From Minisyncoccota bacterium (GTDB lineage: Bacteria > Patescibacteriota > Minisyncoccia > JAHIHE01 > JAGLIN01), in contig JAGLIM010000036.1 of NCBI GenBank assembly GCA_023142995.1, forward strand, positions 1-56,853: 56,853 bases of DNA, read 5' to 3'. The notes under the pieces were generated by a model. It was given only the letters and a program-made list of their open reading frames with translations. It had not been told where the DNA came from and did not search any database. Shown piece after piece: positions 4,009-34,013 of this stretch; position 1 is the stretch's first letter; each line of letters opens with the position of its first letter. The translations under genes were made by a program, and so were the position numbers.

Positions 4009-7000
4009 TTAATTAGAAGACGAAACTTCATTCCATTTTGGATATTTTCTACCTTCAAATGGTATATTTTTTCTTTTCGGACATGATTGTCCTGAAATAT
4101 CTTGCCTATACAAAATTACTGTATAGAAATCTTTTTTTGATTCAATATAAATATTTATTGGATCTTCTTCTATGCTATCTATCGTCGCATTATCATAGAA
4201 ATCCCACTGTCTAATGATAGTCTCAATGCACTTGCCATTATCATCACACTGGAAGCCACCGTCACAATCTGTATCATCTTCACAAGGAGAACAAACTGTA
4301 GAATTGCATTTGAAAAGATCTAATGTCTTACAAGGCGTTCCGACAGAACACTCAAAAGTCCCAGATGGTAAGCAAACTCCAGTGACACAAGTATAATCAC
4401 CGAATTTAGTACATTGTGAAGAATCAGTACAAGCGTCACAATCATTATCACTATTGCACATTGCCTTATCCGAATAAAGACACTGACTATCGTTTAAACA
4501 CTCAACAACATTTGAAATATCTTCAAAATGAATTTCCTCTCCAAAAGAACATCGACTAGTTACATCTTCGCCCTCATCATAAGCACACTGATCAGAATCA
4601 TCATTCACTGCAACAAAATCTACATCAGGATATTCATGAGGCGGAGTCGTAAACAAAGGACCATGACCATTCGGCGATCCCCAATCCGAAACTTTTTCAA
4701 GACCTCCAGACTTATCATCCGTAACTCGAACTCTCCAATAATATGTTTTACCACCATATTCTAAATCAACGCTTTTAATTTCATAGAAAGAAGTAGCATC
4801 TGGGTCTGTGATCCAATTATCAGCAACCACGATCTCGGTTGCTTCGTTAGATATTATTTCTCTGATCCCATTATCAGTTCCAGTGCCGCCTACTATTTCT
4901 ATAGTTCCACCTTGCCATTCATTTTTGATCCAAGTTGCATCATCATCAAATAACTTTTTAACGCCCGAAGATTTAACTGTATCTGATCTCATATTTCCAC
5001 CAGATTGAACAAAATGATATTCGCTATTTCCACCTTTATAATTCAATATTAATGGTCCGATACTAAAATCATCATTAGCTTCTTTTACTTGTATCTCATA
5101 ATATTTTTGACTATCTGTCAAATCATCATCAGTAAACTCCCATTCTAATTTATAATTGAAACTTCCACCACAAAGTTGAGGTTCAACAACTATAAGATTC
5201 TCTACAGTTGGAACTCTGTTTGTATCTATTATAGATATGCTGTACTCATTCGTACATCTATAATTATGATTAACTGAATTATCAGTTGCACAAGATCTAT
5301 ATTTAAATGTTTTATTCGCACTCAGGAATGTAGTATTTATTAAATCTTTTTTCACTTTGATAACATAGCTAGAAGTAGCATCGGGAATAGGAGCATGACT
5401 CCAATTAGAATCTGCTGTTATTGTCTGCTCTGTGTTTGATGATATTGTTTTTAATTCAGTAGTGGCATCTGCATAAGTAATTTCAATAGTTCCTCCAGCC
5501 CATTCACCTATGATCCAATCTTTATCATTAACAGTAATAGTATCTGCTCCTGCAGAAAACACTTGACCATTATTTTCATTTTCACAATCTCCTCCAGAAA
5601 TACAAACATTACAAATCCCTCCGCTACACGCGTTATTCTCTGTAGTAGTCCAATCATCCACAGTCCATTCAATAGATGACTGAAGAATATTACTATCATC
5701 AAAACTATCAGTTGATATTGTAAACTTATTTTCAACAGTGCTAATATCTGAATCATTTATATTTCCAGAAATATTAGTAAGTTTATTTCCTTCAGTTATA
5801 ACTACAGTTGGTATTGTGGTATAACCAGACCCACCATCACTAATATTTATGGCAGAAATCACACCGTCAGTATCAATTACAGAAGTAGCGCTTGCACCAG
5901 TTCCATCGCCAATTATTGTTATAGTAGGCGCCGTAACATAATTTAACCCTCCTGTAAAAGTGATATTACTCACACTTCCACCTAACAATTCTGCAATCGC
6001 AGTTGCTTGAGTTATGTCAATTCTCAACGATTGCGCATCAACAGTAACGCTATTGACTATTCCATCACATTTATTTGCTGCATTATCAAAAGCGCCATTA
6101 CAATCATTATCAATACCATCATTACAAACTTGCCAATGAAGAGGAACATTTCCTGTTAGACCGCTTGAACTAGTGCTATGATATTTCTTCCAGCTAGGTC
6201 CATTGGGACTGCTTAATGCTCCATCATTCCCATTTATAGAACTATCTGTAACAGTTCCACCAGAACCTTTATCAAGGTTCCAATGTCCAATCAAATTTGT
6301 ATTATCAAAAAATATACCATCATACTGATCTGCTATTTCTTGACCAGACAAAACACGATCATAAATTCTTACATCATCCATCAGACCATTATAATATCTA
6401 TTATCACCAATAACTCTTCTGCCAAGAAGAACGGGATTTGAAGATGAGTTAATATTTCCATTCTTTAACTCACTTTTAGATAAAGTACCATCAACATAAA
6501 TTTTTACTTCATAACCATTATAAGTTCCAACTAGATGATGCCATTGATTTTGTGTTAACGGATTATCAGCAACTGCTTGAGTAAAAGAATCAGTATATAC
6601 TCTCATTCTAGGTTTTTCATCGTTTTTAATTCCAAGCATATAACTCTCTTCGTTCATTAATGGTCCTTTTGTGATTATTCCTACATCACTATTTTGATCA
6701 CCTATATAAACCCACGCCACGCACGAAATATTATTTCCCGTAATATCTAAACTTGAGCTATTAGGAATTTCCACATAGTCATCTACTCCATCAAATTCAA
6801 GTGATGAATATGTTTTTTCTTCAATGTCATAACCTCCACAATCACAGTTACAAACTGTATCATTACCATCAAAATCACTGGCAATAGAACAATCTATATC
6901 TGTTGCAGCAGCAATAATCCCGCAAACTCCAAGATCACATCCTTTATTAGTTAGATATTTTCCATCTGTTCCTCCACAAGAATCGAAACCTATTCCTGCT

Positions 7001-10000
7001 AGATCGGGAACACAAAATCCAGCAGTACATTCATTTCCACCACGACAACCAGTATAAAAAGGAGAACAAGATGGTCCACCACCACAAGTTACACCGTCTG
7101 CTTTCAGATTTGGCGTCCAAACTGTTCCAGTACATGTATCAGTATAGCATTCAGAATTAAACAAGTTTGGATTGCTAATTGCAGCATTACAAACTCCACC
7201 ACAACATTCTCCAGTAACTGAAGCATTTTCTCCACATCCAGTTAAAGGATCTTGATCTGCCGCAGTATCCGTGTTCACAATATGATAAGTAACAGGATCA
7301 TCAATAACTATATTTGAACAATCACTATCTAAAACGACAAAATTATAAGTATCAGTTGTTTCAGTATTAGTGTTAATATCAGTTCCTATCGCATAAAAGC
7401 TAAAGGTTTGACCTATGTCAGAATACGCTAATGTTTTTTCTGCTTGACACGTACACGTAAATGCTCCAGCACAATTACATGTTTTAAAAATTGATCCATC
7501 TAAATATACTACAATATTATCAACACCGCTTGTATCACTAGCTGAGGTTCTAATTAAAACATTTTTAGTTTCATAAACACTTCCTGGATCAATTGTGATA
7601 TTAGCATCACCTGCTATAAATGAATCGCTAACATCATATGCCAAATCATCAGACGAATATGAATTAATCCAATCAAAACTAGTAAAAACACTATCACAGA
7701 TAGAACTTGTATTAGTAGATACAAGATTGCAAGTACCAGTCCTTCCACCAACACATGAATAATTTGCTAATCTCAATGGTTCACTATTATATCCACAATA
7801 ATCATTACTTTTGGCTTTATCAGTATCCTTTGCTTTACAGTAACCATTATAACATCTAAGATTTCTGATCTCACATCCTCCTTCTGGCGGATTAAAATAA
7901 GTATATGATTCACCAAATAAATCTGGCGGATTAGCATACGACTCTTGATAGGAATAACAACCACTATCATAATCAGTTCCACCTGAATTAAAAACGCAAG
8001 ATGGATTACCAACAAGTGTTGGATCAGGTTCTAATTCTAACCTTATTCCATTACAAGTTTTTCTTGTACACTCATCTTCATCGTAAGGACCTTCGGGACC
8101 ACTGTTATATGCAGATGTATTGCACACATTTCCACAACATTGACCGCCTGTACAAACAGAAAGATCAGCGCCTGTACATTCAGAACTTTTAATCAAAAAT
8201 GATTTAGTTGCTGAAGTTGAAGAAATATCATTTCCGGAATTATCAGTGACCACAGTTCTAAATTCAATTATCGTTCCAGGTGAATATGAAGAAATATCAA
8301 TTGGACTTGATGTCACACTGTCCATAGTCTGACCATCACCATCACATTTTCCAGAAGGCGAGGCAATATCAATACAATTATACTTTGCTATCCATCCTCC
8401 ACTATTTATATTGAATTGAACTTCATATTCTTTTATTCCATTTGAATCATTTGCCTCTGTAATTATCGTCACAGAACCAGTGAGTTCAGTAACATCAGTT
8501 CCTTCTGGAGGACTCGCTCTTTGGATTTTCGTAATAGTTGGACCTGTTCCATCACACGCAAGTGTTTCTCCTCCATCTATTAAATTATCACAATCATTAT
8601 CGATTCCATCTGAACAAGTAGGATTCCCATCACTATTATTAAAGCCAATTCCTTCTGATGGTTCATTGATCGGTAAACCAAGCGTCTGAAATACCGGACC
8701 ACTATGAAAATCACCTCCAGTTTTAACGTAATAATAAACATCTAAAGTATTATTAAGATAAGTTCCATTATATGAACAATCAATATTTAAAGGATAATTA
8801 CAGCTATAAATTGTTCCATTCAACGAACATGAAGTCATCTCTGAAGCGTTATCTTGTTCACTAACAACTCTTTCTAATGCTCCATTATCAATTCTAATAT
8901 AAAAATTATCTAAATTCGCTAAATTGGGATAATTATTAATATTAATCTTAAATTCTTGATCCACATTCCTCAACAATGCAGGTATTGTTGCAAAAACAGT
9001 AGCAACTGTAACATCTTTTACTGTTACTCCATCTATTACTTCGCTTTGGTTACTATTTGAATCAACTGCATGCGAAGAATAATCTATCTTTGTACCAGCA
9101 TTGAACAATCCTAACGATCCACTGCTACAACTTACAGATGTTCCGACAATACTACAATTGTTAATAACATTTATAGGTGCTCCAGGTGGTGTTGCTATCC
9201 ATTCAATATAATGATCACTAAAACCGAAGTTATCTGTTGCGTTTGAAACCAGTGTTAATTCATCTACATTATACAAAGTACCAGACGGAGTTCTATAGAT
9301 ACCAACAGTTGGAGATATTTCATCACAAACTGCAGAAGTTATTTTATTAACAATATTTTCTAAACTAGCATCTAAACTGCCTTCTACATAATTACAATTT
9401 TCAATTGTACTTTTCATTGTTAATCCAGGTTCATCGTCTGGACTGGCAAGAGTATAATAGCAATCGTTTGGCAAGACATATTGATTATTTATAAAACTTA
9501 TGGCGCTACCTCTTTCCCCATCATCAACAATTTCATCAAAATTAACTCCTATAGTGATCGTTCTTACCGGAGACGCAGATTCTTTCGCAATTTTCACTTC
9601 TTCAATTGCCGAAGTAATATCTATTGGACCACCGCTAACAATTAAAACTATCGTTTTTGTTGCTAAGTAGTTATCACTATTTAAAAGAAATGTCCGAGAA
9701 AGACTTATAGCATCAGTTATATTTCTTGATCCAGACAATTCAACCATAGATCCAATTACAGTTTGAATATCTTCTTTTATCTTCGTTAAAGACCAACTTG
9801 AAACATTTGAATTAAAAGTTGCTAGTCCTACTTGATGATAATCCAAGTTTTCTGCTGCTCCAAAAGCAGGAACAGTAGAAAATAACCCCGAAGGAGTCGT
9901 CCCGTCTTTGTATATAAAATCTATACTTGAATTTTTTACATCACTTAATTTAGTACCAGACATATTTGCTGAATTGTCTATTGCTAAAATAACATCAGCT

Positions 10001-10140
10001 GGTCCTTTACAAGAAGTCGTGGCAGAAGAAACTTTATTTTTATAAACACCAACAGCTGCAAACACAAAAACAATAAGTAACATAAAAAATGCTTTTCTCT
10101 TGAATTGTATTTCTTTTTTTTGTTTTTTTATATTTTTCAT
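4009..10140 (-). CDS. giant (2043 aa) membrane-anchored/secreted vWA + LamG + Cys-rich repeat protein, candidate pilus-associated adhesin (PilY1 analogue)
   Basis: N-terminal anchor FFMLLIVFVFAAVGV. vWA MIDAS-type start ILAIDNSANMSG (about 9540-10000). Metal-binding-like CxDGxDNDC motifs (CSDGIDNDCDNLIDGGE, CNDGIDNDCNGAFD). Laminin-G_3/concanavalin-like block LEFDGVDDYVEIP...WHHLVGTYNG...LMDDVRIYDRVLSGQEI (about 6330-6810). Many Cys-rich stretches and internal duplications (W.(G/N)EW.GGTIEI...). Lies between pilC and the pilO/pilN-like genes. Confidence 0.75.
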   Translation of the reverse strand: MKNIKKQKKEIQFKRKAFFMLLIVFVFAAVGVYKNKVSSATTSCKGPADVILAIDNSANMSGTKLSDVKNSSIDFIYKDGTTPSGLFSTVPAFGAAENLDYHQVGLATFNSNVSSWSLTKIKEDIQTVIGSMVELSGSRNITDAISLSRTFLLNSDNYLATKTIVLIVSGGPIDITSAIEEVKIAKESASPVRTITIGVNFDEIVDDGERGSAISFINNQYVLPNDCYYTLASPDDEPGLTMKSTIENCNYVEGSLDASLENIVNKITSAVCDEISPTVGIYRTPSGTLYNVDELTLVSNATDNFGFSDHYIEWIATPPGAPINVINNCSIVGTSVSCSSGSLGLFNAGTKIDYSSHAVDSNSNQSEVIDGVTVKDVTVATVFATIPALLRNVDQEFKININNYPNLANLDNFYIRIDNGALERVVSEQDNASEMTSCSLNGTIYSCNYPLNIDCSYNGTYLNNTLDVYYYVKTGGDFHSGPVFQTLGLPINEPSEGIGFNNSDGNPTCSDGIDNDCDNLIDGGETLACDGTGPTITKIQRASPPEGTDVTELTGSVTIITEANDSNGIKEYEVQFNINSGGWIAKYNCIDIASPSGKCDGDGQTMDSVTSSPIDISSYSPGTIIEFRTVVTDNSGNDISSTSATKSFLIKSSECTGADLSVCTGGQCCGNVCNTSAYNSGPEGPYDEDECTRKTCNGIRLELEPDPTLVGNPSCVFNSGGTDYDSGCYSYQESYANPPDLFGESYTYFNPPEGGCEIRNLRCYNGYCKAKDTDKAKSNDYCGYNSEPLRLANYSCVGGRTGTCNLVSTNTSSICDSVFTSFDWINSYSSDDLAYDVSDSFIAGDANITIDPGSVYETKNVLIRTSASDTSGVDNIVVYLDGSIFKTCNCAGAFTCTCQAEKTLAYSDIGQTFSFYAIGTDINTNTETTDTYNFVVLDSDCSNIVIDDPVTYHIVNTDTAADQDPLTGCGENASVTGECCGGVCNAAISNPNLFNSECYTDTCTGTVWTPNLKADGVTCGGGPSCSPFYTGCRGGNECTAGFCVPDLAGIGFDSCGGTDGKYLTNKGCDLGVCGIIAAATDIDCSIASDFDGNDTVCNCDCGGYDIEEKTYSSLEFDGVDDYVEIPNSSSLDITGNNISCVAWVYIGDQNSDVGIITKGPLMNEESYMLGIKNDEKPRMRVYTDSFTQAVADNPLTQNQWHHLVGTYNGYEVKIYVDGTLSKSELKNGNINSSSNPVLLGRRVIGDNRYYNGLMDDVRIYDRVLSGQEIADQYDGIFFDNTNLIGHWNLDKGSGGTVTDSSINGNDGALSSPNGPSWKKYHSTSSSGLTGNVPLHWQVCNDGIDNDCNGAFDNAANKCDGIVNSVTVDAQSLRIDITQATAIAELLGGSVSNITFTGGLNYVTAPTITIIGDGTGASATSVIDTDGVISAINISDGGSGYTTIPTVVITEGNKLTNISGNINDSDISTVENKFTISTDSFDDSNILQSSIEWTVDDWTTTENNACSGGICNVCISGGDCENENNGQVFSAGADTITVNDKDWIIGEWAGGTIEITYADATTELKTISSNTEQTITADSNWSHAPIPDATSSYVIKVKKDLINTTFLSANKTFKYRSCATDNSVNHNYRCTNEYSISIIDTNRVPTVENLIVVEPQLCGGSFNYKLEWEFTDDDLTDSQKYYEIQVKEANDDFSIGPLILNYKGGNSEYHFVQSGGNMRSDTVKSSGVKKLFDDDATWIKNEWQGGTIEIVGGTGTDNGIREIISNEATEIVVADNWITDPDATSFYEIKSVDLEYGGKTYYWRVRVTDDKSGGLEKVSDWGSPNGHGPLFTTPPHEYPDVDFVAVNDDSDQCAYDEGEDVTSRCSFGEEIHFEDISNVVECLNDSQCLYSDKAMCNSDNDCDACTDSSQCTKFGDYTCVTGVCLPSGTFECSVGTPCKTLDLFKCNSTVCSPCEDDTDCDGGFQCDDNGKCIETIIRQWDFYDNATIDSIEEDPINIYIESKKDFYTVILYRQDISGQSCPKRKNIPFEGRKYPKWNEVSSSN

Positions 10141-20896: not shown

Positions 20897-21976
20897 TTAT
20901 CTTCTTTGCATCATCATTTTTAGATCATTAACATCCAAAGAATATGTTTCACCATTTTCAAGAGATATTTGTCCATCTTTGATCAAGTTTGCAAGCGAAC
21001 TATTCAGAGATGTCATCCCTTCATCAGCACTGGTATTGATCACTAGGTCAAGCTGATGAGTTTTATTCTCCCTGATCAAATTTCTTACTGCAGAATTTGC
21101 CAGCAAGATCTCAATCGCTGGAACTCTTCCTCCCTCAATCTTGGGAACAAGTCTTTGTGAGACAATTCCTAATAGATTTCCTGCAAGCTGAGCTCTGATT
21201 TGATCTTGTTGTCCAGCTGGAAAACTGTCAATGATTCTATCAATAGTTTGCGCAGCAGAATTTGTATGAAGTGTTGCAAATACAAGATGACCAGTTTCAG
21301 CAGCTGTAATCGCTGTACTAATTGTTTCTGGATCTCTCATCTCTCCAACAAGAACAACATCAGCATCTTCTCTAAACACACTTCTGAGCGCAGTACTAAA
21401 TGATTCTGTATCAGAATGAACTTCTCTTTGATTTATTATACATCTATCCTGAGAATATACATACTCAATCGGATCTTCAATTGTGACAATATGAGCATAT
21501 CGTTGATGATTTATTCTATCAATAAGAGCGGCTAACGTCGTTGACTTTCCATGTCCAGATGGACCTACAACAAGAACAAATCCTTGAGATGCAGCTGTAA
21601 AATCATAAATAATACTTGGAATTTGAAGATCTTCTAAAGTTCTTATTTCAGATGATATTAATCTAAATGCAGCACTAACATAGCCTCTTTGATAGAAAAC
21701 ATTCACTCTGAATCTAATTTTTTCTTCAAATTCATAAGAAGTATCAAGTTCTTTTGTTCTTATAAAACTTTCCTTTTGTTCATCAGTTAGTATTGAAAAA
21801 ATAATATCTTCTGCATTTGCAGGAGTAAGCATTTCCTTATTTGTAAGAGGGATTAATCTCCCATCAATTCGAAGTGTTGGATATCTTCCCACAGCCAAAT
21901 GAAGATCAGACGCATTTTCTTGCGCTGTCATTACTAATAAATTATCTAATTCTTGTTTTGTACTTATGCTTGTCAT
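20897..21976 (-). CDS. pilT: twitching-motility (retraction) ATPase PilT
   Basis: 359 aa. Walker A GPSGHGKST, Asp and His boxes, and the PilT-specific AVRNLIRENKTHQL motif. Confidence 0.92.
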   Translation of the reverse strand: MTSISTKQELDNLLVMTAQENASDLHLAVGRYPTLRIDGRLIPLTNKEMLTPANAEDIIFSILTDEQKESFIRTKELDTSYEFEEKIRFRVNVFYQRGYVSAAFRLISSEIRTLEDLQIPSIIYDFTAASQGFVLVVGPSGHGKSTTLAALIDRINHQRYAHIVTIEDPIEYVYSQDRCIINQREVHSDTESFSTALRSVFREDADVVLVGEMRDPETISTAITAAETGHLVFATLHTNSAAQTIDRIIDSFPAGQQDQIRAQLAGNLLGIVSQRLVPKIEGGRVPAIEILLANSAVRNLIRENKTHQLDLVINTSADEGMTSLNSSLANLIKDGQISLENGETYSLDVNDLKMMMQRR

Positions 21977-21993
21977 TGTTTATGAATTATGAA

Positions 21994-22383
21994 TTATGAT
22001 TCTTTCTCTATTACTTCTTTGATCTTTTTTACAACCTCGGAAGGAGTGAAATGAGCTTTTATAATATAGCTCGCTGCACCAAGCTCAAACCCTTTTTCAA
22101 TATTTTCTTTTTGAGATAGATTTGTCAAAAGAATAACAGGTACATTTTTTAATATATCATTTTCCTTAATCATTTTCAAAACACTAAAACCATCGATCTT
22201 AGGCATAACAATATCCAGTAATATTACATCAGGGATATCTTTTTCTAATCTTTTCATCCCTTCTATTCCATCACTTGCAACATTAACCTCATAATTATCA
22301 GCTTCTAACTTAATTTTATACATATCAGAGATATATATATCATCTTCGATTATAAATACTTTAATTTTTTCGTTATTATTCAT
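21994..22383 (-). CDS. stand-alone response-regulator receiver domain protein (CheY/PilH-like)
   Basis: 129 aa with IIEDD acidic pocket, phospho-acceptor context LLDIVMP, LTN and conserved Lys (IIKAHF). No output domain. Confidence 0.85.
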   Translation of the reverse strand: MNNNEKIKVFIIEDDIYISDMYKIKLEADNYEVNVASDGIEGMKRLEKDIPDVILLDIVMPKIDGFSVLKMIKENDILKNVPVILLTNLSQKENIEKGFELGAASYIIKAHFTPSEVVKKIKEVIEKES

Positions 22384-22460
22384 ATTTATTAACTTAAATA
22401 TATTAACATATTAGCATACTAACACATTTAAAATTTCTATTTCAGTTTGTTAAAATGTTT

Positions 22461-24209
22461 CTAGTCTTCTGTAGCTTTTAAAACCTCTTCAATCGTAGTA
22501 TATCCTTTTAAAGCTTTTAATATACCATCTTGCTTCATTGATAGCATACCTTGTTTTACAGCCTCTTTGGCAATATCAGTGTCAGTAATTTTTGATGTCA
22601 TAATCTCTTCAATACCAGATGTCATTGAAAGAACTTCATAAACACCAATTCTTCCAGAAGTTCCTGATTTATTACAATCACTACAACCCTTACCTTGATA
22701 AACTTTAATTCCTTTTGAAAAATCTATACCGACCTTTTGATCTTCTGGTATTTGATCAAGTTCTTTGAGAATCATTTTTTCTAGACCTTTGGATAATTTA
22801 GCTTCTTCTTTACATTTTTTACATATTTTTCGTACAAGTCGCTGTCCGACTGCAAGATTCAATGATGAAGAAATTAGAAAAGGTTCAATTCCCATATCTA
22901 TCAATCTCGGAATAACACCAACAGCATTATTAGTATGCAAAGTAGATAATACCAGATGTCCAGTTAATGCTGCATGAGTAGCAAGTTCAGCAGTTTCTTT
23001 ATCTCTAATTTCACCAACCATAATTATATCTGGATCCTGACGTAAAATTGACCTTAAACCTGATGAAAAAGTATATCCTATCTCTGCTTTTATCTGAGAT
23101 TGATTGATACCAGCCATAAAATATTCAACAGGATCTTCCAGAGTAACAATATTAACTCCTTCTTCATTTAATATCTTGAGCATAGCATAAAGAGTTGTTG
23201 ACTTTCCAGATCCTGTAGGGCCTGTTACAAGAATTATACCAAATGGTTTTCCAATATTTTCGTTTATTATTTTTAATCCACGACCAGAAATTCCGAGAGA
23301 TTCCAAAGAGTTTATATCAGATGACGTATCAAGAATTCTCATTACTACTTTTTCACCTGTCACTGTTGGAAAAGTTGAAACACGCAAATCAACACTTTTA
23401 GCACCGCTAGCATTTGAATTCAAATCAAATCTAAATCTTCCATCTTGTGGCTTTCGAGTTTCATCAATTTTCAAACTTGATAATATTTTGATTCTTGATA
23501 CTACTGCGGGACCTATTTTAGCTGGTAGAACTAAACTATTATGTAAAACTCCATCAAGTCTATATCTTACTCTTAGTTCGTTCTCTGAAGGTTCAATATG
23601 AATATCACTTGCCTTGCCCTCTACAGCATGTGAGACAATAATATCAACTATTTTACTTACTGGCGCTTTCTCTAGAATTGTTCCTCCTTTTTCCTTTTTT
23701 TCTTCTTTTTTTTCTTCAATATGTACATCAACATTCTTCAATACATTTTCGATCTCATCACTGAACTTCCTATATTGCTTGGAAATTGTATTAAAACCAT
23801 TTCCAGATATTAAATAAATTTCTGTTTTTAAATTATGTTTAACCGAAATAAACTTCAAAGCATCCAAAGCATCAACATTAGTTGGATCAGCCATTGCGAC
23901 TTTTAAAGAATCATCATCTCTTTTAAATGGTATGAACTTATAAAATAACGAGGCTTTCTCAGGAATTTCTTTCAAAACTTCCGGTTCAATTATTTCATCC
24001 TTCAAATTAATATATGGAATACTTAGAAATTCAGCTTTGGCTTTAATGATCTCTTCTTCTTCCGCAAATTTTTTCTTGATCAAAACATTAAATATATCTA
24101 GATTTTTGTCTTTTGCTTCTTCAAATGATTCATTAAGTTTTTTGGTACTACCAAGTTTCTTCGCAACAAGATCGTTATAAGCTTTTTCTAGATATTCATC
24201 ATTCATCAC
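22461..24209 (-). CDS. pilB: type IV pilus assembly (extension) ATPase PilB/GspE family
   Basis: 582 aa. T2SSE N-domain, Walker A GPTGSGKST, Walker B/Asp box, His box, tetracysteine motif CKKCKEE...CSDCNKSG. Confidence 0.92.
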   Translation of the reverse strand: MMNDEYLEKAYNDLVAKKLGSTKKLNESFEEAKDKNLDIFNVLIKKKFAEEEEIIKAKAEFLSIPYINLKDEIIEPEVLKEIPEKASLFYKFIPFKRDDDSLKVAMADPTNVDALDALKFISVKHNLKTEIYLISGNGFNTISKQYRKFSDEIENVLKNVDVHIEEKKEEKKEKGGTILEKAPVSKIVDIIVSHAVEGKASDIHIEPSENELRVRYRLDGVLHNSLVLPAKIGPAVVSRIKILSSLKIDETRKPQDGRFRFDLNSNASGAKSVDLRVSTFPTVTGEKVVMRILDTSSDINSLESLGISGRGLKIINENIGKPFGIILVTGPTGSGKSTTLYAMLKILNEEGVNIVTLEDPVEYFMAGINQSQIKAEIGYTFSSGLRSILRQDPDIIMVGEIRDKETAELATHAALTGHLVLSTLHTNNAVGVIPRLIDMGIEPFLISSSLNLAVGQRLVRKICKKCKEEAKLSKGLEKMILKELDQIPEDQKVGIDFSKGIKVYQGKGCSDCNKSGTSGRIGVYEVLSMTSGIEEIMTSKITDTDIAKEAVKQGMLSMKQDGILKALKGYTTIEEVLKATED

Positions 24210-24294
24210 GTTTTTATTATTAATAATAAATTTTCCAAAAACTGCAAACAGATAATATTATATTTTCTAAAGAAATAAACATCTAATCAGATAT

Positions 24295-25413
24295 CTATTT
24301 TCTATTTTCCAATCCTCTTAATGCTAATCCAACAGCTACTGAAAAATACGGGGAAGACTCTTCAAGTCTTTTATCTAATGCTCTATCATAAGAAATCTCT
24401 TTCCATGGATTACCAATCTCTGTTGGTATCCCAATTTCTGTTGTAAAATATTCAGCTAAACCAGAGATATAAGATGTTCTTCCTGTTACTATAATTTTAT
24501 TAACACTTTTCTTATTTGATTTAGTATAATTTCCATTTATTTTTCTTATTTCAGAAATGATTATACTCATTATTGGTAACACTATTTCAGAGACTTGCTT
24601 TTGAGAATTATCCTCTTTATTAAGTCCAATATCTTTTTTAAGTTGTTCAGCTCTATGAAAATCAACATCTACTCCGTGACTAATAATTCTTGTTATCTCT
24701 TCACCTCCTGTACCAGAGATACTATGACCGCTTATTACTTCTCCGCTTTCTACAATAGTAATGCTTGTTGTTTTATTACCTATATCAACAATTGAAATTG
24801 TACCTTTCTCACCTCTTGAGAAAGCCATAGCAAGCGAAAACGATTCAGTCTCTAATGCAACAAGCTCTAACCCTAATGAATCCACAATACTAACATATTT
24901 ATTTGTAATTTCTTTTGGTATCGCAACTAATAATATTTTCAATTTCTTTATATTTTTCTCCTCTACAATACTATCCTTATTTCCATTTTTAGTTCCGCCT
25001 GTTCTTCCAATAACAACCCAATCAAATATTACTTCATCTATAGCTATCGGAATATATTGTCTTGCTTCAAAATTTATTGCATTTTCTATCTCTTCCTCAG
25101 GCATATCAGGTAAACTTATTATTGAGGAAAATGCCGATGATATAGGAACAGCCATTGAAACCCTTTTTGAACTTATACCAGCATCGCTTATAATTTTTGC
25201 TAGATCATCTGATATTTTCTTATCAGACATTCTGATATTATTAAATTTACTATCACTACCTAAAATCTCCAAATAATCTTTAGTTTCTATTGAAGCATAA
25301 TTTTCAAGACTAACTTTCTTATCCTTCGATCCCAACTGAACAACTCTTATTCCAGTTGTTCCTATATCAACTCCCAAAGAACTAGCTGCTTGTTTTTTTA
25401 AAATATTGAACAT
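24295..25413 (-). CDS. pilM: type IV pilus assembly protein PilM (actin-like ATPase fold)
   Basis: LGVDIGTTGIRVVQL phosphate-1-like motif, 372 aa, first gene of the pilM-pilB-pilT string. Confidence 0.85.
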   Translation of the reverse strand: MFNILKKQAASSLGVDIGTTGIRVVQLGSKDKKVSLENYASIETKDYLEILGSDSKFNNIRMSDKKISDDLAKIISDAGISSKRVSMAVPISSAFSSIISLPDMPEEEIENAINFEARQYIPIAIDEVIFDWVVIGRTGGTKNGNKDSIVEEKNIKKLKILLVAIPKEITNKYVSIVDSLGLELVALETESFSLAMAFSRGEKGTISIVDIGNKTTSITIVESGEVISGHSISGTGGEEITRIISHGVDVDFHRAEQLKKDIGLNKEDNSQKQVSEIVLPIMSIIISEIRKINGNYTKSNKKSVNKIIVTGRTSYISGLAEYFTTEIGIPTEIGNPWKEISYDRALDKRLEESSPYFSVAVGLALRGLENRK

Positions 25414-26301: not shown

Positions 26302-29300
26302 TTAATTATCTAACAATTCCAGTTTCCCTTTCAGTTTTTCTAGCTTTATTGTACTTTCTTGATGTTTTTCCCTTTCTTTTTCAACAATTTCTCGCGGAGC
26401 ACTAGCGACAAAGTTATCATTACCAAGTTTTTTTCTTATCTGTGTAATATATTTTTCTATATTCTCAATTTCTTTTTTAGTTTTTTCTATCTCTTTTTCT
26501 GTATCAATCAAATCCCCGATATTTACATAAACTGAAACCTTATGATCAAAATGAATCCACCCTTCTATCTTTTTTACTCCAACTTCAAATTCTAAACTTT
26601 TAACTCCTGCTAATTTTTCAATAATATTTTTATTTTTTTCTATTACATCAAAATCTGCTTTCGTTAGATCCTTTCTTGTTTCAGAATTTATTACAACATC
26701 CACTTTTTCTTTTAAGGAAATTTTATTCTCATTCTTTATCCTTCTTATTTCTGAAATTATTCCCTGAAGAAGATCAAAATCAACATTTACTTGAATTAAT
26801 TCTAAACATCTTTTTTTATCCTCTGGCCATTTTTCAACCATTAATAAACTATTTTTATCCATCTCTTCCCATATCCTTTCTGTCACAAAAGGTATGAACG
26901 GATGACATAGCTTTAATAAAGTTTCCAAAACATAAATTAAAACCGCATCATTTTTCTCTTGTACTTTTGAAACCTCTAAATACCAATCAGCAAATTTATT
27001 CCACATAAAATCTCTAATACCATCACCAACTTCAAGCGCAGAAGAAAATTGATAATTTTCTAAAGAATTATTAACTATATAAATAAGATTATCCAATTCT
27101 TCTAAAATCCATTTATCCGCCAAAGTTAAATTATCATAATCAATTTCTGACTTTTGACTTTTGACTTTTGACTTTTGACTTAGAATTATATACCGCGACA
27201 CATTCCAAAGCTTATTCACAAAATTCCGATACCCTTCAATTTTCTCTTCATACATTTTGATGTCATTTCCTGGACTGGACCCGATGATCATACTCAATCG
27301 CAAAGCATCTGTTCCATATTTTTCGATCATTGTGGCAGGATCAATTCCATTTCCAAGAGATTTGCTCATTTTCTTTCCTTGTTTATCACGCACCATTCCA
27401 TGAAGATAAACATTTTCAAATGGCACTTCGTCTAAAGTATAAGTCGTCATCAAGATCATTCTGGCTATCCAAAAAAACAAAATATCATATCCAGTTTCCA
27501 TTACTGAAGTTGGATGAAATTTTTTCAAATCCGGACTACCAGCGACCCACTCCTCAAATGTTTTATACTTCTCGTGATCTTGATCAAGCAAAGTTGAAAA
27601 AGTCCAAATCCCAGAAGAGAACCAGGTGTCAAGAGTATCAAAATCCTGAGTCCACTCCGAGTTTTTTAAAAATACATTTCCACCAATTAAAATTTTATCA
27701 TCTTTATATCTAACATATATTTCATTTTCAAAATTTTCTGTTCCTTGCTTAACAATAAAATCATTATCAAAAAATGCAGCTAATGCACCAGCAGCAACAG
27801 CTGTTGCTTCATCTTCATTAATTCCTAAAAATGGATTAAATTGTCTTACAAAAACTAAGTTTTTATTTTTTTTATCTTCAACAAAAAGACAATATCCAGA
27901 AAAATTCTTTTCCTTATTCCATTTTTTAAGATTTTCAAAATCAGGATTTACTTTTCTTAAAGTTTCAATATCTTTTATCCTTACTATAAGCTTTGGCACG
28001 CCAATAGAAAATATTCCTAAAAGTTCAAACTCTTCTTTTTCAATTCCCAAAAATTCAAATGGCAGTTCTTCAGAAAAATTCGACTTGATTCTTATAGACT
28101 TATCTGTTTGAAAAAATATTTTATTATCTTCTTTTTGAACTACAATATCTCCTGCTAATGTTTTAATTTTAAGATCTGATTTATCAAAACTCGTAGCTCC
28201 AGCAAGCAAAGCATGACCGCAAAGCGGAGTTTCTTCTCCTATTTTTGAAAAAAATCTAAACTCAGCATCATAATTTGAATTTTTAGATTTTAAAACAAAA
28301 ACGCTTTCAGAAGCACCAATCTCTTTTGCAATTTCTGGCATTTCGTTTTCTTTAAATTCTTTATCTACTACGCCTGCTATATTGCCACTGCTTATATTAG
28401 AACCAAAAACATTTGCAATTTTATAATCATTCTCTGGCAACTTACCGCCAATATAAATTTCCTGACTTTCTACTTTATGAACTTTATCAACTTTTAACTT
28501 ATAATACACCGGAATCCGATGTCCAAACCACAACTGCCGTGAAATGCACCAGTCATGAAGATTTTCCATCCAGTTATAATAAGTTTTCTCAAATCTCTCT
28601 GGAATGATCTTGATCTCCCTATTTCTGACAACTTCAAGAGAAACATCTTTAAGGGACTTGTTTTGAAAATATTTATTTCCTTCAATCGTAATTTTTTTAT
28701 CAACGGCAACAAACCATTGCTTTGACGGCAGAGGTTCAATTGGAGTATCGCAACGATAGCAAATGCTCAAAGATTGGTCTACTTCTTCAACTTTTTCAAT
28801 TAAATCATTTTTTTGTAGATATTTTACAAATTTCTTTCGCGCTTTTAAAGCTGTTAGTCCCGCATAATCTTTCCCCGCACCAACATTCATTTTCCCATCT
28901 TCACCGATTACTTTTATTTTTTCTAAATCATTCTTTTCTGCTATTTCCCAATCAATCATACTGTGTGCTGGCGTTACTCCTATTGCTCCTGTTCCAAATT
29001 CCATATCAATCCCCCGATCAGCAATAACTTTGATCTTATGTGTGCCATTTCCCAGATCAATTTCAAAAATCTGTCCAATATATTTCTTATATCTCTTGTC
29101 CTTGGGATTCACCGCAATTGCTGTATCGCCCAATTTTGTCTCTGGTCTTGTCGTGGCAATTGTGATCGGAAAATCTTTATTATATTTAAAATAATAAAAT
29201 TTTCCTTTTTGATCTTTATGTTCAACTTCATCATCCGCAAGAGTTGACTCGCATCTTGGACACCAGTTAACAATTCTGTCTCCGCGATATATTAATCCAT

Positions 29301-29805
29301 CATTATACATCTTCGTGAAAACCTCTCTAACCGCGCGCGATAGACCATCATCAAGAGTATATCTTTCCCGCGACCAATCACAAGAAGATCCCATTTTTCG
29401 TGTTTGGTTTTTAATCGTGTTTTTTGAATTTTCTACATATTCATTAATTCGCTCTAAAAACTTTTCTCTCCCCAGATCATATTTCGTTTTACCTTCTTTC
29501 GCGATTATCTTCTCAACTTTCGTCTGCGTCGCAATTGAAGCATGATCCGTCCCTGGAAGCCATAATGCCTTTTTCCCCTGCATCCGATTATACCTGATCA
29601 TTAAATCCTGATAAGTAAGCATTGAGGCATGCCCCAAATGTAAAAAACCAGTCGCATTCGGCGGTGGCATTGAAATTGAAAACTTTTCAGCATCTTCTGG
29701 CAACTCTAAATTATCTGGATCAAACTTCCCAGATTCTTCCCATTTTTTATATATTTTATCCTCAACTTCTTGTGGATTATATGCTTTTGGAATTTCTTTT
29801 TTCAT
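26302..29805 (-). CDS. valS: valine--tRNA ligase carrying an internal PhzF-like domain insertion
   Basis: HIGH-type FLHLGHA, CP1 editing region, WCISRQLWFGHRIPVYY, DTLDTWFSS, KMSKS and a C-terminal coiled coil. At 1167 aa it exceeds the usual roughly 880 because of an insert of about 256 aa between the WFGHRIP and DTWFSS elements. Confidence 0.95.
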   Translation of the reverse strand: MKKEIPKAYNPQEVEDKIYKKWEESGKFDPDNLELPEDAEKFSISMPPPNATGFLHLGHASMLTYQDLMIRYNRMQGKKALWLPGTDHASIATQTKVEKIIAKEGKTKYDLGREKFLERINEYVENSKNTIKNQTRKMGSSCDWSRERYTLDDGLSRAVREVFTKMYNDGLIYRGDRIVNWCPRCESTLADDEVEHKDQKGKFYYFKYNKDFPITIATTRPETKLGDTAIAVNPKDKRYKKYIGQIFEIDLGNGTHKIKVIADRGIDMEFGTGAIGVTPAHSMIDWEIAEKNDLEKIKVIGEDGKMNVGAGKDYAGLTALKARKKFVKYLQKNDLIEKVEEVDQSLSICYRCDTPIEPLPSKQWFVAVDKKITIEGNKYFQNKSLKDVSLEVVRNREIKIIPERFEKTYYNWMENLHDWCISRQLWFGHRIPVYYKLKVDKVHKVESQEIYIGGKLPENDYKIANVFGSNISSGNIAGVVDKEFKENEMPEIAKEIGASESVFVLKSKNSNYDAEFRFFSKIGEETPLCGHALLAGATSFDKSDLKIKTLAGDIVVQKEDNKIFFQTDKSIRIKSNFSEELPFEFLGIEKEEFELLGIFSIGVPKLIVRIKDIETLRKVNPDFENLKKWNKEKNFSGYCLFVEDKKNKNLVFVRQFNPFLGINEDEATAVAAGALAAFFDNDFIVKQGTENFENEIYVRYKDDKILIGGNVFLKNSEWTQDFDTLDTWFSSGIWTFSTLLDQDHEKYKTFEEWVAGSPDLKKFHPTSVMETGYDILFFWIARMILMTTYTLDEVPFENVYLHGMVRDKQGKKMSKSLGNGIDPATMIEKYGTDALRLSMIIGSSPGNDIKMYEEKIEGYRNFVNKLWNVSRYIILSQKSKVKSQKSEIDYDNLTLADKWILEELDNLIYIVNNSLENYQFSSALEVGDGIRDFMWNKFADWYLEVSKVQEKNDAVLIYVLETLLKLCHPFIPFVTERIWEEMDKNSLLMVEKWPEDKKRCLELIQVNVDFDLLQGIISEIRRIKNENKISLKEKVDVVINSETRKDLTKADFDVIEKNKNIIEKLAGVKSLEFEVGVKKIEGWIHFDHKVSVYVNIGDLIDTEKEIEKTKKEIENIEKYITQIRKKLGNDNFVASAPREIVEKEREKHQESTIKLEKLKGKLELLDN
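27149..27181 (-). repeat. (GACTTTT)4.7 heptamer tandem repeat in frame inside valS
   Basis: Direct reading. Encodes SQKSKVKSQKS in the loop between NKLWNVSRYI and LTLADKWILEEL. Confidence 0.85.
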
Positions 29806-29842: not shown

Positions 29843-30715
29843 TCAAGATCCATTTACTTCAGAATCTTCATACCCTGAAATAACACACTGTTTATTATCT
29901 AATGCTTCTTGTAATGGATTTTCAACTTCTTTACCATCAATCGTATATGTTATTTTTATTTCTTCACTTCCCAAATCTGCTTCTATGCTAGTTCCAATAG
30001 ATTTCGCTATAGTAGTGTCCCTATGATACTGCGCAATTGCTTTTCTCATATCTTCTGAATATTCACAATACATCTTACCATTATTTGGCATTTCTTCAGT
30101 ATACTGGCATTTATCATTTACCATCCCAACTATCTTTCTTTCCATCATCTCGCCAGTGAATGGATGCTTGAATTTATATGAAAATGGTTCACATAGATCA
30201 AGTTTATCCGGAAAAATGATATATTCTTCAACAGAATCTTCAAACATCTTTGTATATAATCCTTCATTTTTATTCTTTATCTCATTTTTCAGATTTTCCC
30301 ATTCTTCTTCTGTTAACTTTTTATCATTAAGCGGATTATAACCACTTTTAATTTCATCAAAATCGCTATAAGTATCACCGTCTGTATCTGTTTCATAAAA
30401 ATTAGTCCCTAATATCTCCTCAATGTAATCAGGCAATCCATCTAGATCAGTATCAAATTCTTTGTCAATCTTGTCTTCCTCTACCTTTTTATCTTCTAAA
30501 GTATCCACATTTACCTCTACTGGCAACTCATCATCGTCTTCCTTGTTTGAAAACAAAAAATATACCATACCAAAACCAATAATGATTAAAATAATTACAA
30601 TTAATAAGATGATCTTTTTATTGATCTTTTCTTCAGATCCAGGAGCAATCGGCTCACCTTCACTATCCAATTTGATCTCTGCGCTATTTTCACCAGATTG
30701 TATATTTTGTTCCAT
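29843..30715 (-). CDS. membrane-anchored hypothetical protein with thrombospondin type-3-like Ca-binding repeats
   Basis: TM IILLIVIILIIIGFGMVYFLF, then DTDLDGLPDYIEEILGTN...DTDGDTYSDFDEI (TSP3-like D-x-D-x-D repeats) and a Cys-containing C-terminal domain. Confidence 0.5.
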   Translation of the reverse strand: MEQNIQSGENSAEIKLDSEGEPIAPGSEEKINKKIILLIVIILIIIGFGMVYFLFSNKEDDDELPVEVNVDTLEDKKVEEDKIDKEFDTDLDGLPDYIEEILGTNFYETDTDGDTYSDFDEIKSGYNPLNDKKLTEEEWENLKNEIKNKNEGLYTKMFEDSVEEYIIFPDKLDLCEPFSYKFKHPFTGEMMERKIVGMVNDKCQYTEEMPNNGKMYCEYSEDMRKAIAQYHRDTTIAKSIGTSIEADLGSEEIKITYTIDGKEVENPLQEALDNKQCVISGYEDSEVNGS

Positions 30716-30938: not shown

Positions 30939-33900
30939 ATGAAAAAGACTAAAGAAACTTTTAAAAAACAAATAAATAAAATTGCTATTAGAGGAACGTT
31001 ACTAACAATGGCATTTTTAATAATTAGCGTTACTCAGATATCAAATGCTAGAGAATCCGAAATAAATAAAATAGTTATTTCAACAAACAGTTCTAGCGAC
31101 ATTGAAATAAACAGCATAAACCTTACAATAAGCGATGACAATGCTTCTTATTGTGAATCATATACAACTACTTATAATTCATCAGAAATAGAGCACACTT
31201 ATTATTCTAAAATAAGTTATGTTGGCAATTCTGTTTCCTTATATGATGGTTGGGTTGAAAGTGGAGCAGGTAATGGTTTAATCTATGAGTCAGAAGCAAT
31301 GCCTGAAATTGATACATTAGAATTATTTGGTCCCGAAAGTACTTATGGTTGCGCTGATAAGATAGAATCTATTTGGAATTATGATTGGGATAAAGATAAA
31401 TGGAGTTGTTATACTTTTAATCTAGAGTCTTTTGTATGGTTAAATGATTTAATAACGATTAAAAACGGGAAACAATATGAAATAATAATGAAAGAAGGTC
31501 AATCTTGTACACTAACTCACCCTGCAAGCGATGGTAGTTTCTGGAAAGCTGATTATTGTAAAAATGGTTGCGAAAATGGAACTTGCTTAACAGAAACTGA
31601 TCCTTCAATAACTGTAATATCTCCTGTTTATAATGAAAAAGTAGATTTTAATAAAACATACTCTATTAAGTGGGAACAATCCGCCTTAGGCAGTGATACT
31701 ATAAAAGTTGACTTATACAATACGGACAACAATTTTATTGTTAATATTTCCACTGGTTTATATCATGGTATTTTTGCGGTAATTAGTAAAGATTGGGCTG
31801 TACCGTCCAACTACATAGGATCAGGATATAGAATAAAAGTTTCCAGCGTAGAAAATCCTGATATTTATGATTGGAGCGACAGGTTTTATATTTACAGTCC
31901 AGACAACACAACAACCCCCGCAAAACCAACTAATATTTCCGTGTATCAAAATAGTTCTTCAGATCCAATATATAAATTAGCTTTTGATTATACGACTCCA
32001 ATGGTTGTTGATTATTATTGCGCTAATATTTATCGTTCTACCGTTTCGGGACAACTTGGCAAGAAAGTTCTTGATTGTGTTGGCAAAGACACAAAACCTG
32101 GCGCTAATACAAGTTATTTCCCATACGAAGATTCATATATTAAAGATAATTCCGATGGAACTGTTTATTACACAATTAGAGCAGTTGACACGGCTGGCAA
32201 TGAATCAACTAACATAGATCAATATTCTTATTCCTGGGATGTTTGCGAAGGTCCATATCATGTATTATCTCCTGACGGACGATGCGTTTGGTCGTGCGGA
32301 CTTAATACTACTCCAGACAATATAACCAATGAATGTGTTTGTAAAGATGGTCATACGGAGTCTGGAAATGATAAATTTGGTAGAAGAGTTTGTAGTATTG
32401 ATTCAAATTCTCCTTCAATTACCATAATTTATCCAAATGGCGGAGAAAAATGGGAAGCTGGAAAAGCTTACAGCATTGTTTGGCATTCTACTGGTTATGA
32501 TAAAGTTAGAGTTTATGTAGGATGCGAAGGGTATGCTTCAGGAGCTATTATGGATGTTCCAAGTGGCACTGTTGGCGGTTCATATATTTATACCGTTCCG
32601 GCAAATTGGGCAGTTCAAGATCAGTGCAAAGTTCAAGTTTCAGAAAATGTAAAAATGTTAACCAATATTACAGATGGTGTGAATTCTGATATGAGTAATA
32701 ATTATTTTAGTATTATAAAATCCTCAACAAAATCTATCACTGTCACTTCTCCAAATGATGGCGATAAACTGGAAATTGGAAAACAATATCAAATAAAATG
32801 GAATACAACAGGATTGTCTTCTGATGAAAAATTAAAAATTATCATTTATACAGAATCCAAGCAAAGAAGTCACATTATTACTGAATCTGTTGATAATACA
32901 GGCAGTTATAATTGGACGGCTGAATTTCCCGGATTAATAATTCAACCGAATCAAAAATATTCTATTTATATTACAAATTCAAACGTTTATGCTTATTCTG
33001 AAAATTTTTATCTTTCAAAAACTTCTACCGACAAATCTATCACTGTCATTTCTCCAAATGGCGGAGAAACGCTAAAAATAGGTGAACAACACTTAATTAA
33101 ATGGGACACAACTGGAGATATAGATCAAGTTACCATCGCTTTAAATAAAAACGGCGTATATATCAAAAACTTAATTTGGAACATAAAAAATAACAGCTCT
33201 ATCTCTTGGACTCCAGATCTTAGTCTTGAACCTGGAGACGATTATAAAATTAGAATTACAGATCCAGACAGTAGCTCCTATGACTATGACGAAAGTGATA
33301 ACTATTTCAGCATCACTAAATCATCTAAATCAACCTGCTTTCCTGATGGCACTCTTATAAAAGTCCCGAACGATCCAAAAATTTATATTATTAAAGATTG
33401 CGAAAAACAATGGATTGAGAGTGCAGAAGAATTTAAACACAAAGGATATAAATGGGGAGATGTTCGGGAAGTAAATATAGAAATAATTAATATGTATGTT
33501 GAACATAACGAAATTTCAATAGCAATAAATCTTTTAAAAGAAGTTGACAACTCAAAGATCTATTGTATCGTTAACGGCAAAAGATTGTGGATTCCAACTG
33601 CTACCGCTTTTAACGCCCAAGGATTAAAATGGAATGATGTTCAAAATGTCGAAAAAGCAAATATTAATCAATATCCTATAATTAAATTAGCTAAACTAGC
33701 TGACAGCCCTAAAGTTTATTATTTAACAGATAATGGATTTAAAAAGCATATTCCAACCGCTGAAGTATTTAATTCTTACAATAATAGATGGGACGATATA
33801 GCTGAAATTTCAGCTATATCGCTTGATGCTTATAACGATGTTCAATTGATTAAAACTGAAAAAGATTCTAAGGTTTACAAATTAGAAAACGGCAAAAAAA

Positions 33901-34013
33901 GATGGGTTAAAACAGCAAACGCCTTTGAAAGACTTAGATTCAACTGGACAGAAATTATGATAATAAATAATATTGATATTAATGCTTATCCCGCTGGAAT
34001 AAACATTGAATAA
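30939..34013 (+). CDS. large secreted repeat protein (four Kre9/GPI-anchored-like beta modules + four C-terminal ~55-aa repeats)
   Basis: Signal-like N-terminus (LLTMAFLIISVTQISNA). Repeated modules ITVISPVYNEKV.., SITIIYPNGGEKWEAGKAYSIVW, SITVTSPNDGDKLEIGKQYQIKW, SITVISPNGGETLKIGEQHLIKW. C-terminal repeats (P/S)K(I/V)Y.....G.K.WI.(S/T)A..F...G..W.D(V/I) x4 at about 33337-34010. Confidence 0.6.
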   Translation: MKKTKETFKKQINKIAIRGTLLTMAFLIISVTQISNARESEINKIVISTNSSSDIEINSINLTISDDNASYCESYTTTYNSSEIEHTYYSKISYVGNSVSLYDGWVESGAGNGLIYESEAMPEIDTLELFGPESTYGCADKIESIWNYDWDKDKWSCYTFNLESFVWLNDLITIKNGKQYEIIMKEGQSCTLTHPASDGSFWKADYCKNGCENGTCLTETDPSITVISPVYNEKVDFNKTYSIKWEQSALGSDTIKVDLYNTDNNFIVNISTGLYHGIFAVISKDWAVPSNYIGSGYRIKVSSVENPDIYDWSDRFYIYSPDNTTTPAKPTNISVYQNSSSDPIYKLAFDYTTPMVVDYYCANIYRSTVSGQLGKKVLDCVGKDTKPGANTSYFPYEDSYIKDNSDGTVYYTIRAVDTAGNESTNIDQYSYSWDVCEGPYHVLSPDGRCVWSCGLNTTPDNITNECVCKDGHTESGNDKFGRRVCSIDSNSPSITIIYPNGGEKWEAGKAYSIVWHSTGYDKVRVYVGCEGYASGAIMDVPSGTVGGSYIYTVPANWAVQDQCKVQVSENVKMLTNITDGVNSDMSNNYFSIIKSSTKSITVTSPNDGDKLEIGKQYQIKWNTTGLSSDEKLKIIIYTESKQRSHIITESVDNTGSYNWTAEFPGLIIQPNQKYSIYITNSNVYAYSENFYLSKTSTDKSITVISPNGGETLKIGEQHLIKWDTTGDIDQVTIALNKNGVYIKNLIWNIKNNSSISWTPDLSLEPGDDYKIRITDPDSSSYDYDESDNYFSITKSSKSTCFPDGTLIKVPNDPKIYIIKDCEKQWIESAEEFKHKGYKWGDVREVNIEIINMYVEHNEISIAINLLKEVDNSKIYCIVNGKRLWIPTATAFNAQGLKWNDVQNVEKANINQYPIIKLAKLADSPKVYYLTDNGFKKHIPTAEVFNSYNNRWDDIAEISAISLDAYNDVQLIKTEKDSKVYKLENGKKRWVKTANAFERLRFNWTEIMIINNIDINAYPAGINIE

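Follow-up and report, generated by a model that had tools for sequence, protein, structure and literature searches.

Aminoacyl-tRNA synthetases are among the most conserved proteins, and domains newly gained by them have repeatedly pointed to new biology, for instance editing, signalling, or the assembly of complexes. Class Ia enzymes may carry an extra domain within their connective polypeptides (CPs), as in the case of CP1, an ancient, universal and proven aminoacyl-tRNA hydrolase, and of the GNAT-containing isoleucyl-tRNA synthetase (IleRS; NCBIfam NF040702). In this class, the CP2-CP3 linker reads W-x-(I/V)-S-R-x-x-x-W-G and, in yeast IleRS, lines the tRNA 3'-end pocket (PMC7955072). CP3, a peripheral subdomain, follows this linker and joins the second Rossmann half, and its topology and zinc content differ between species (PMC7191050). 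Fusion of a complete metabolic-type enzyme domain to a class I synthetase has been described in a reduced genome, where the methionyl-tRNA synthetase (MetRS) of M. penetrans is joined terminally, via N-terminal tandem domains, to an alanine-glyoxylate aminotransferase whose functional link is unclear (PMC13215547). Here we analyze valS, encoding a valyl-tRNA synthetase (ValRS), on a contig of 56,853 nucleotides (JAGLIM010000036.1; hereafter the window) from an uncultured Patescibacteria (Paceibacteria-type) bacterium. Its CP3 harbors a complete domain of the PhzF family.

PhzF-family proteins, among them Pseudomonas PhzF, E. coli YddE, yeast YHI9, and the B. anthracis protein 3EDN, are homodimers. 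Free-standing members comprise ~280–300 amino acids (aa) and display a two-lobed, DapF-like fold; the ~257-aa domain in ValRS shares this fold and exceeds the curated hidden Markov model (HMM) cutoffs of the family, and differs from these members in being nested in another enzyme. The arrangement is similar to the M. penetrans MetRS fusion in that a complete enzyme domain accompanies a class I synthetase in a reduced genome with an unclear functional link; unlike that fusion, it is nested in CP3, and both the enzyme family and the synthetase differ. Unlike CP1, the PhzF insert is recent, found in one lineage, and unrelated to known editing folds.

Results

Host gene and insertion site

valS lies at 26302..29805 on the minus strand, the strand of all valS features below, and forms one uninterrupted open reading frame of 1167 aa, as read in the original prediction. 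Its product exceeds the cutoffs of the NCBIfam equivalog models NF004349 (992 bits, cutoff 704) and TIGR00422 (918 bits, cutoff 612). Pfam splits tRNA-synt_1 in two, with PF02567 between the pieces, and T. thermophilus ValRS (1GAX) aligns with an E-value of 6e-172 in two blocks, residues 4–437 and 720–1161. Residues 1–459 (28429..29805) comprise the first Rossmann half, the CP core, the CP1 editing domain, CP2, the CP2-3 linker, and the N-arm of the CP3 hairpin. Residues 732–1167 (26302..27612) hold the second Rossmann half with KMSKS at residue 812 (27358-27372), the anticodon-binding domain (PF08264, 897–1039), and a C-terminal coiled coil (PF10458, ValRS C-terminal arm, 1101–1165). The motifs of the host are all intact, including PPNATGFLHLGH (position 48), KMSKS, the CP1 editing elements TTRPET (218) and GTGAIGVTPAHS (271), and the cysteines of CPRC (182) and CYRC (349); all ValRS domains and motifs are shared with the T. 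thermophilus enzyme (1GAX/1IVS). A full-length AlphaFold2 (AF2) model (pLDDT 81, pTM 0.72) is confident for the ValRS body on both sides of the insert, with pLDDT values mostly of 85–97 for residues 1–459. Because it was built from a ValRS-only alignment, in which two sequences cover the insert, the insert itself is poorly modeled; a mixed ValRS and PhzF alignment was discarded, as MAFFT spread the PhzF proteins across ValRS columns. The gene order valS-HSP20-PilM-T2SSE is common to the window and to the contig of an insert-free orthologue (P0043). A search for a second valS, insert-free or otherwise, covered the 57-kb window and found none. The host thus appears, by its motifs and gene order, to be the orthologous housekeeping valS, present as a single copy within the window.

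The nested domain, for which HMM, AF2, Foldseek, and a tblastn gap are the evidence, spans residues ~460–716 (257 aa; 27658..28428). These borders refine by a few codons the ~256-aa block initially placed at 27652-28419. The insert is flanked by the CP2-CP3 linker motif WCISRQLWFGHRIPVYY (residues 419–435; 28501..28551), homologous to the yeast IleRS "linker CP2-3" ARDWNVSRNRYWG, and by DTLDTWFSS, an interval that holds ~30 residues in the insert-free orthologue. The spacing from WCISRQ to DTWFSS accordingly amounts to 307 aa in the window protein versus 41–49 aa in the majority of related ValRS. In tblastn, P0043 matches the window to either side of a clean gap of 759 nt (27667-28425), with the hairpin N-arm (residues 436–459; 28429..28500) also aligned; the C-arm, together with the start of the second Rossmann half, occupies residues 717–731 (27613..27657). 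In the split 1GAX match, T. thermophilus residues 418–448 correspond to the segment whose tip the insert has replaced. The PhzF domain hence sits at the tip of the CP3 β-hairpin, with its first and last strands leaving and re-entering the hairpin. The insertion, which had been assigned to the CP2/CP3 connective region, can now be located to CP3 directly after the CP2-CP3 linker. Compared with T. thermophilus ValRS, CP3 has grown from ~30 to ~290 residues by a whole foreign enzyme fold, whereas the hairpin of T. thermophilus ValRS and of some Patescibacteria has a CxxC...CxxC pattern instead.

Fold and active-site residues of the insert

PF02567 (PhzC-PhzF) matches residues 465–685 with an E-value of 3.3e-29 and 102.7 bits in the whole protein, or 107.4 bits for the insert alone (gathering cutoff 27), and TIGR00654 (PhzF_family) reaches 91–94.8 bits versus a cutoff of 76.2, a resemblance far beyond chance. 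An AF2 model of residues 455–722, derived from an alignment of 37 free-standing PhzF proteins, displays both lobes of the DapF-like fold (pLDDT 89.7, pTM 0.86). The best match in a Foldseek search of the PDB is YddE (1qya; E 6.5e-21, TMq 0.82), followed by the B. anthracis PhzF-family protein 3EDN, yeast YHI9, and Pseudomonas PhzF (TMq 0.75–0.81; PhzF 0.77). Matches to 1qya, 3edn, 1ym5, and 1t6k each extend over ~280–300 columns; DapF and proline/hydroxyproline epimerases rank after the PhzF family. The HMM score and these TM values of 0.75–0.82 bear out the earlier claim of a whole PhzF/DapF-fold protein, and the motifs quoted for it (GNIAGVV, MPEIAKEIGASESVFV, RFFSKIGEETPLCGHALLAGA, and VRQFNPFLGINEDEATAVAAGALAAFF) are all present.

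Catalytic residues of PhzF include Glu45, His74, and Asp208, and Gly212-Ser213 binds the carboxylate of the phenazine precursor DHHA (PMC4586147). Residues were mapped onto PhzF via a HMMER alignment of the insert to 1T6K, in which the proposed Glu position, CGHA, and ED..T elements correspond to Glu45, Gly73-His74, and Glu207-Asp208-Thr211. S499-E500 (28306..28311) equals Ser44-Glu45, so that the proton-shuttle Glu is kept. C529-G530-H531 (28213..28221) takes the place of Ala72-Gly73-His74 with Gly-His conserved, and Cys529 aligns with the Cys of the family-invariant LCGHA. In the C-terminal lobe, E664-D665-E-A-T668-A669-V670 (27796..27816) corresponds to Glu207-Asp208-Ala-Ala-Thr211-Gly212-Ser213: Glu207-Asp208 and Thr211 are retained as E664-D665 and T668, and the Gly212-Ser213 carboxylate clamp is lost, being replaced by A669-V670. 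Val at the Ser213 position also occurs in a free-standing subgroup with TG[VI]AAGAL. The insert matches 35 of the 57 columns that are at least 90% conserved in the free-standing family and is a divergent PhzF-family member. Its nearest free-standing relatives, which belong to Vibrio, Photobacterium, Aneurinibacillus, and Clostridium, do not exceed 41% identity and thus single out no donor. The short free-standing proteins closest to the insert (P0001, P0002, and P0159 from Vibrio/Photobacterium; ~250–260 aa) are without the catalytic Glu, with PVT replacing SES, and contain a Cys in both LCGHA and EDSACAV, resembling a DapF-type two-Cys arrangement on a PhzF-family scaffold.

Several other assignments were considered and rejected. 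A DapF-type epimerase is not supported by TIGR00652 (26–29 bits, cutoff 114.65); the second Cys of the DapF pair, which we take to be Cys73/Cys217, would presumably fall on T668, a Thr. Phenazine (phz) genes are absent from the annotated open reading frames of the window, where the neighbors encode HSP20, PilM, T2SSE, a 290-aa protein, and a large surface protein; as no phenazine genes are nearby, the insert is probably not a DHHA isomerase of phenazine biosynthesis. An intein or mobile element is likewise not indicated: Pfam finds only PhzF in the insert and no Hint or endonuclease domain, the insert starts with DYKIA rather than with the Cys or Ser of a splice junction, and its junctions show no boundary repeats beyond AT-rich chance matches. 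Searches of the insert against Pfam, NCBIfam, and PDB folds return only the PhzF/DapF/proline-racemase superfamily and none of the known synthetase editing or trans-editing folds (CP1, INS/YbaK, AlaX, DTD). RNA-binding adaptation is not supported by an isoelectric point (pI) of 5.1. The insert is acidic like free-standing PhzF proteins (median pI 5.7), which disfavors direct tRNA binding.

Independent copies and selection

Independent copies of the fusion exist. An identical protein (P0038) is encoded on three contigs, and P0039, a 1159-aa homologue from a different sample, is 77% identical, with the same junctions and the same upstream gene. P0158 (NCBI MCK4891147.1) is an incomplete sequence annotated as "class I tRNA ligase family protein" in a Candidatus Pacebacteria metagenome-assembled genome; it is 79–82% identical to P0038/P0039, and its ValRS runs into the PhzF N-lobe at the identical point. 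Comparison of the insert with orthologues, suggested along with the original prediction, hence yields the same insertion site in two further lineages at 77–82% identity, so that no fewer than three lineages have inherited the insert. Catalytic Glu and His are kept in P0039 and P0158, and the Asp in P0039; none of the copies of the insert contains a frameshift or stop codon.

The fusion is rare. Among 185,579 GTDB representative genomes only the flanks found matches and no close relative of the insert was present, nor was the fusion found in JGI metagenome contigs. HMMER, run exhaustively against 1.84 billion cluster representatives, contributed solely the P0158 fragment, a result to be read with the caveat that full-length fusions may hide beneath insert-free representatives. 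Word-indexed searches using the insert or a junction miss long targets, even the 1167-aa protein of the window and P0039, both of which a full-length query did return; counts of the embedded domain are therefore lower bounds. An assembly or annotation artefact, that is, a chimeric contig or two adjacent genes fused, could be suspected from the metagenomic origin of the sequence and from the failure of word-indexed insert searches to list fused full-length proteins. However, the omission looks like a property of the search, given that the window's own protein is omitted too, a single frame runs unbroken from ValRS through the insert and back into ValRS, and the identical protein on three contigs is joined by a 77% identical homologue and a 79–82% identical NCBI fragment with the same junctions. 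Recurrence of these junctions in three lineages and on several contigs led us to reject an assembly chimera, and the probability of any artefact is in our estimate negligible.

Selection was assessed between the window gene and its P0039 counterpart in L001. The insert, 82% identical at the amino-acid level, has a ω of 0.26 (dN 0.09, dS 0.35), compared with 0.055 for the ValRS N-terminal body containing the catalytic core and 0.25 for the C-terminal half. Substitutions hit 10 of 96 PhzF-conserved columns versus 37 of 160 elsewhere (Fisher p = 0.012). The insert is under purifying selection, which maintains it as a PhzF-type fold. The dS of the insert (0.35) between these two full-length fusion lineages is lower than that of the flanking ValRS (0.63 and 1.0), and its GC content (0.275) falls below that of the N-terminal body (0.362); possible explanations are that the insert was exchanged more recently or that codon constraints differ. 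The low GC content would also suit a tolerated passenger in a permissive loop, persisting mainly because it is harmless, as would the rarity of the fusion, limited to three lineages and absent from the GTDB representatives and JGI contigs searched, and the highly variable length and content of inserts at the CP3 hairpin among near relatives. Against such neutrality stand the ω of 0.26 with 82% identity retained at a dS of 0.35, the depletion of substitutions in conserved columns, the preserved catalytic residues, and the lack of frameshifts and stops in any copy. We therefore regard a mere passenger as very unlikely.

Cargo in the CP3 hairpin of related synthetases

We surveyed the 120 closest ValRS and found extra length always in the CP3 hairpin (window equivalent 27613-28551). 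Five proteins (P0040/41/44/45/48) carry α/β serine hydrolase inserts (PF06821), in all of which GRSLG, SSNDPY, and NADHF are kept and the Ser/Asp/His triad is intact. Histidine phosphatase inserts (PF00300) are present in six (P0057/62/70/108/111/124), with RH[G/C] and the second His kept in P0070, P0111, and P0124. Further relatives (P0042/46/52/54/55/58/59/73/96/107/114/157) harbor unannotated inserts of 80–190 aa without significant Pfam matches; of the types P0042/58, P0055/59/96, P0073/114, and P0107/157, the last two are basic (pI ~9–9.6). Many close relatives lack any insert while keeping the same locus. On the contigs of serine-hydrolase-bearing P0040, valS-HSP20 is followed by the contig end. 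Several such ValRS go under the name "class I tRNA ligase family protein" at NCBI. The entry point follows IY(V/I)GxExPxx for both PhzF and serine-hydrolase inserts and precedes EIYVG for histidine-phosphatase inserts, and the hairpin therefore has at least two entry points. Since sister Patescibacteria ValRS bear different cargo in the same hairpin, CP3 is an insertion hot spot. The PF06821- and PF00300-bearing proteins share with the window ValRS the host gene, the locus, the CP3 hairpin, and the acquisition of a whole small-molecule enzyme fold; they differ in that the cargo folds are unrelated.

The range of cargo bears on whether the insert is an enzyme at all. It may instead be a non-catalytic structural or oligomerization module that dimerizes ValRS or docks a partner, its enzyme ancestry being incidental. 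PhzF-family proteins being homodimers is the basis of this idea. Some histidine-phosphatase cargoes at CP3 have lost catalytic residues, and the PhzF insert itself has diverged at 22 of 57 conserved columns, including the carboxylate clamp. Precedents are offered by CP3 of human IARS1, which serves as a protein–protein interface (PMC13439101), and by M. penetrans MetRS, which dimerizes via its fused aminotransferase domain (PMC13215547). On the other hand, the Glu/His/Asp set persists, along with most first-shell residues, in every lineage observed, substitutions in the insert avoid PhzF-conserved columns, and every serine-hydrolase cargo has an intact triad. A non-catalytic role of this kind thus appears unlikely.

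Mosaic history of valS

The type of insert is incongruent with the phylogeny of the flanks. Up to approximately residue 855, P0038 and P0039 are 78–100% identical per 50-aa window (93% over the N-half); after this point (26302-27240 in the window) identity falls to 25–60% through the anticodon-binding region and is ~68% at the extreme C-terminus. The best partners of the C-terminal region are the serine-hydrolase type P0040 for P0038 (82%) and P0058 for P0039 (85%), and P0052 is 98–100% identical to both P0038 and P0039 over the first ~100 residues. By these patterns valS is a recombinational mosaic. A tree of the ValRS body split the two PhzF-bearing ValRS, so that the insert boundary was considered as breakpoint; this was rejected because the sliding window places the break relative to P0039 near residue 855 (~27240), where the anticodon-binding region begins. 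The insert thus has its history in common with the catalytic body.

Such mosaicism, along with the incongruence between cargo and flanks, is reminiscent of loci under conflict and lends some weight to a third option, namely that the insert acts in cis on ValRS chemistry, its target being an aminoacyl-adenylate, an aminoacyl-tRNA, a non-cognate amino acid, or an inhibitor near the synthetic site. Epimerization at the α-carbon, extra proofreading, or detoxification are conceivable examples, and the varied cargoes of relatives, with esterase, phosphatase, and isomerase folds, would represent alternative solutions to one problem. The CP2-3 linker, lining the tRNA 3'-end pocket (PMC7955072), leads straight into CP3. 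Moreover, the DapF-fold superfamily includes many racemases and epimerases of amino acids, which come next in the ranking of fold matches, and all three annotated cargo types are small-molecule enzymes. Their folds nevertheless have unrelated chemistries, and many close relatives are insert-free at the same locus. The CP1 editing motifs are intact, leaving no obvious need for extra proofreading, the acidic insert lacks RNA-binding adaptation, and the full-length model gives no geometric sign of a PhzF cleft facing the ValRS site. Action in cis is for these reasons quite improbable.

Genomic neighborhood

Directly downstream of valS-HSP20 lies a type IV pilus-like set (20897-25413, minus strand) with PilM and two T2SSE/PilB-type ATPases; the syntenic pilus region of the P0043 contig additionally contains a response regulator, N-methyl pilins, and a prepilin peptidase. 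The gene directly upstream of valS (29843-30715, minus strand) encodes a protein of 290 aa that is rich in Asp/Glu, has no Pfam match, and is predicted to contain a transmembrane segment; this gene is found at the same place in the P0039 contig. It adjoins a plus-strand gene (30939-34013) for a 1024-aa protein with repeated Kre9_KNH-like modules. A 2043-aa protein with VWA and Laminin_G_3 (concanavalin-like lectin) domains, probably a giant surface or adhesion protein, is encoded at 4009-10140 (minus strand). A free-standing PhzF gene was not found within the 57-kb window.

Discussion

Synthetases with appended or inserted domains are known; what is new here is a whole isomerase fold nested in CP3, at a site of interchangeable cargo. 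The full-text literature searched yielded no account of a synthetase containing a PhzF-fold domain, in agreement with what the original prediction had supposed, nor of a CP3 hot spot.

We propose that the CP3 β-hairpin tip of a housekeeping ValRS was opened to admit a complete PhzF-family domain, giving rise to a two-enzyme polypeptide. The ValRS part would charge tRNA-Val as usual. The insert would form an autonomous module that binds a small molecule bearing an amino group and probably isomerizes or epimerizes it, with protons shuttling through E500; its substrate is presumably not DHHA. By riding in an essential protein, the module would gain constitutive and stoichiometric expression. The site itself is a permissive hot spot, where cargo was acquired at no fewer than two points of the hairpin. 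That the protein is bifunctional in this sense, combining a normal ValRS with an autonomous PhzF-like module at the CP3 tip, we consider an even bet. Most likely the insert is a module for small-molecule isomerization or ligand binding that is autonomous while being tethered to an intact ValRS. Its acidity and the varied cargo at the site argue against a dedicated proofreading role.

Several points weigh against this proposal. Most members of the PhzF family, this one included, have no known activity or substrate. The insert departs from the family at 22 of 57 near-invariant columns, which include, besides the Gly212-Ser213 equivalents, the RPSE motif and the His at 639 (here Cys), and with these departures the insert could be binding-only or purely structural. 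The full-length AF2 model, with pLDDT values of 35–75 for the insert, does not establish its orientation to the ValRS active site. Some histidine-phosphatase inserts have lost catalytic residues (P0057 and P0062 have VHG instead of RHG, and P0108 is without both His), and evidently CP3 cargo need not be catalytic in every case. The search for a second valS covered the 57-kb window, and one may lie elsewhere in the genome.

A more far-reaching view would be that CP3 of Paceibacteria-type ValRS is a recombination-driven cargo slot, in which enzymes are swapped among co-occurring lineages and act in cis by the tRNA 3'-end pocket, e.g., by inactivating adenylate-mimicking inhibitors or non-cognate substrates. 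We deem this speculative and hardly probable; if true, modules embedded in synthetases for protection or proofreading, and diversifying under conflict, would make up a class of their own that is new.

Collectively, these results indicate that a complete foreign enzyme fold can nest in CP3 of a bacterial ValRS that is apparently functional, and can be retained there by selection, and that in one group of ultra-small Patescibacteria the CP3 hairpin repeatedly took up different enzymes. NCBI naming of these ValRS could be corrected to valine--tRNA ligase. Should the cargo be structural, it would represent a new way to oligomerize or dock a class Ia synthetase; should it be active, these proteins would be bifunctional synthetases found in nature, and missing metabolism or quality control of minimal genomes may come to light through them. 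Either way, CP3 is a permissive site, validated by nature, at which domains could be engineered into ValRS.

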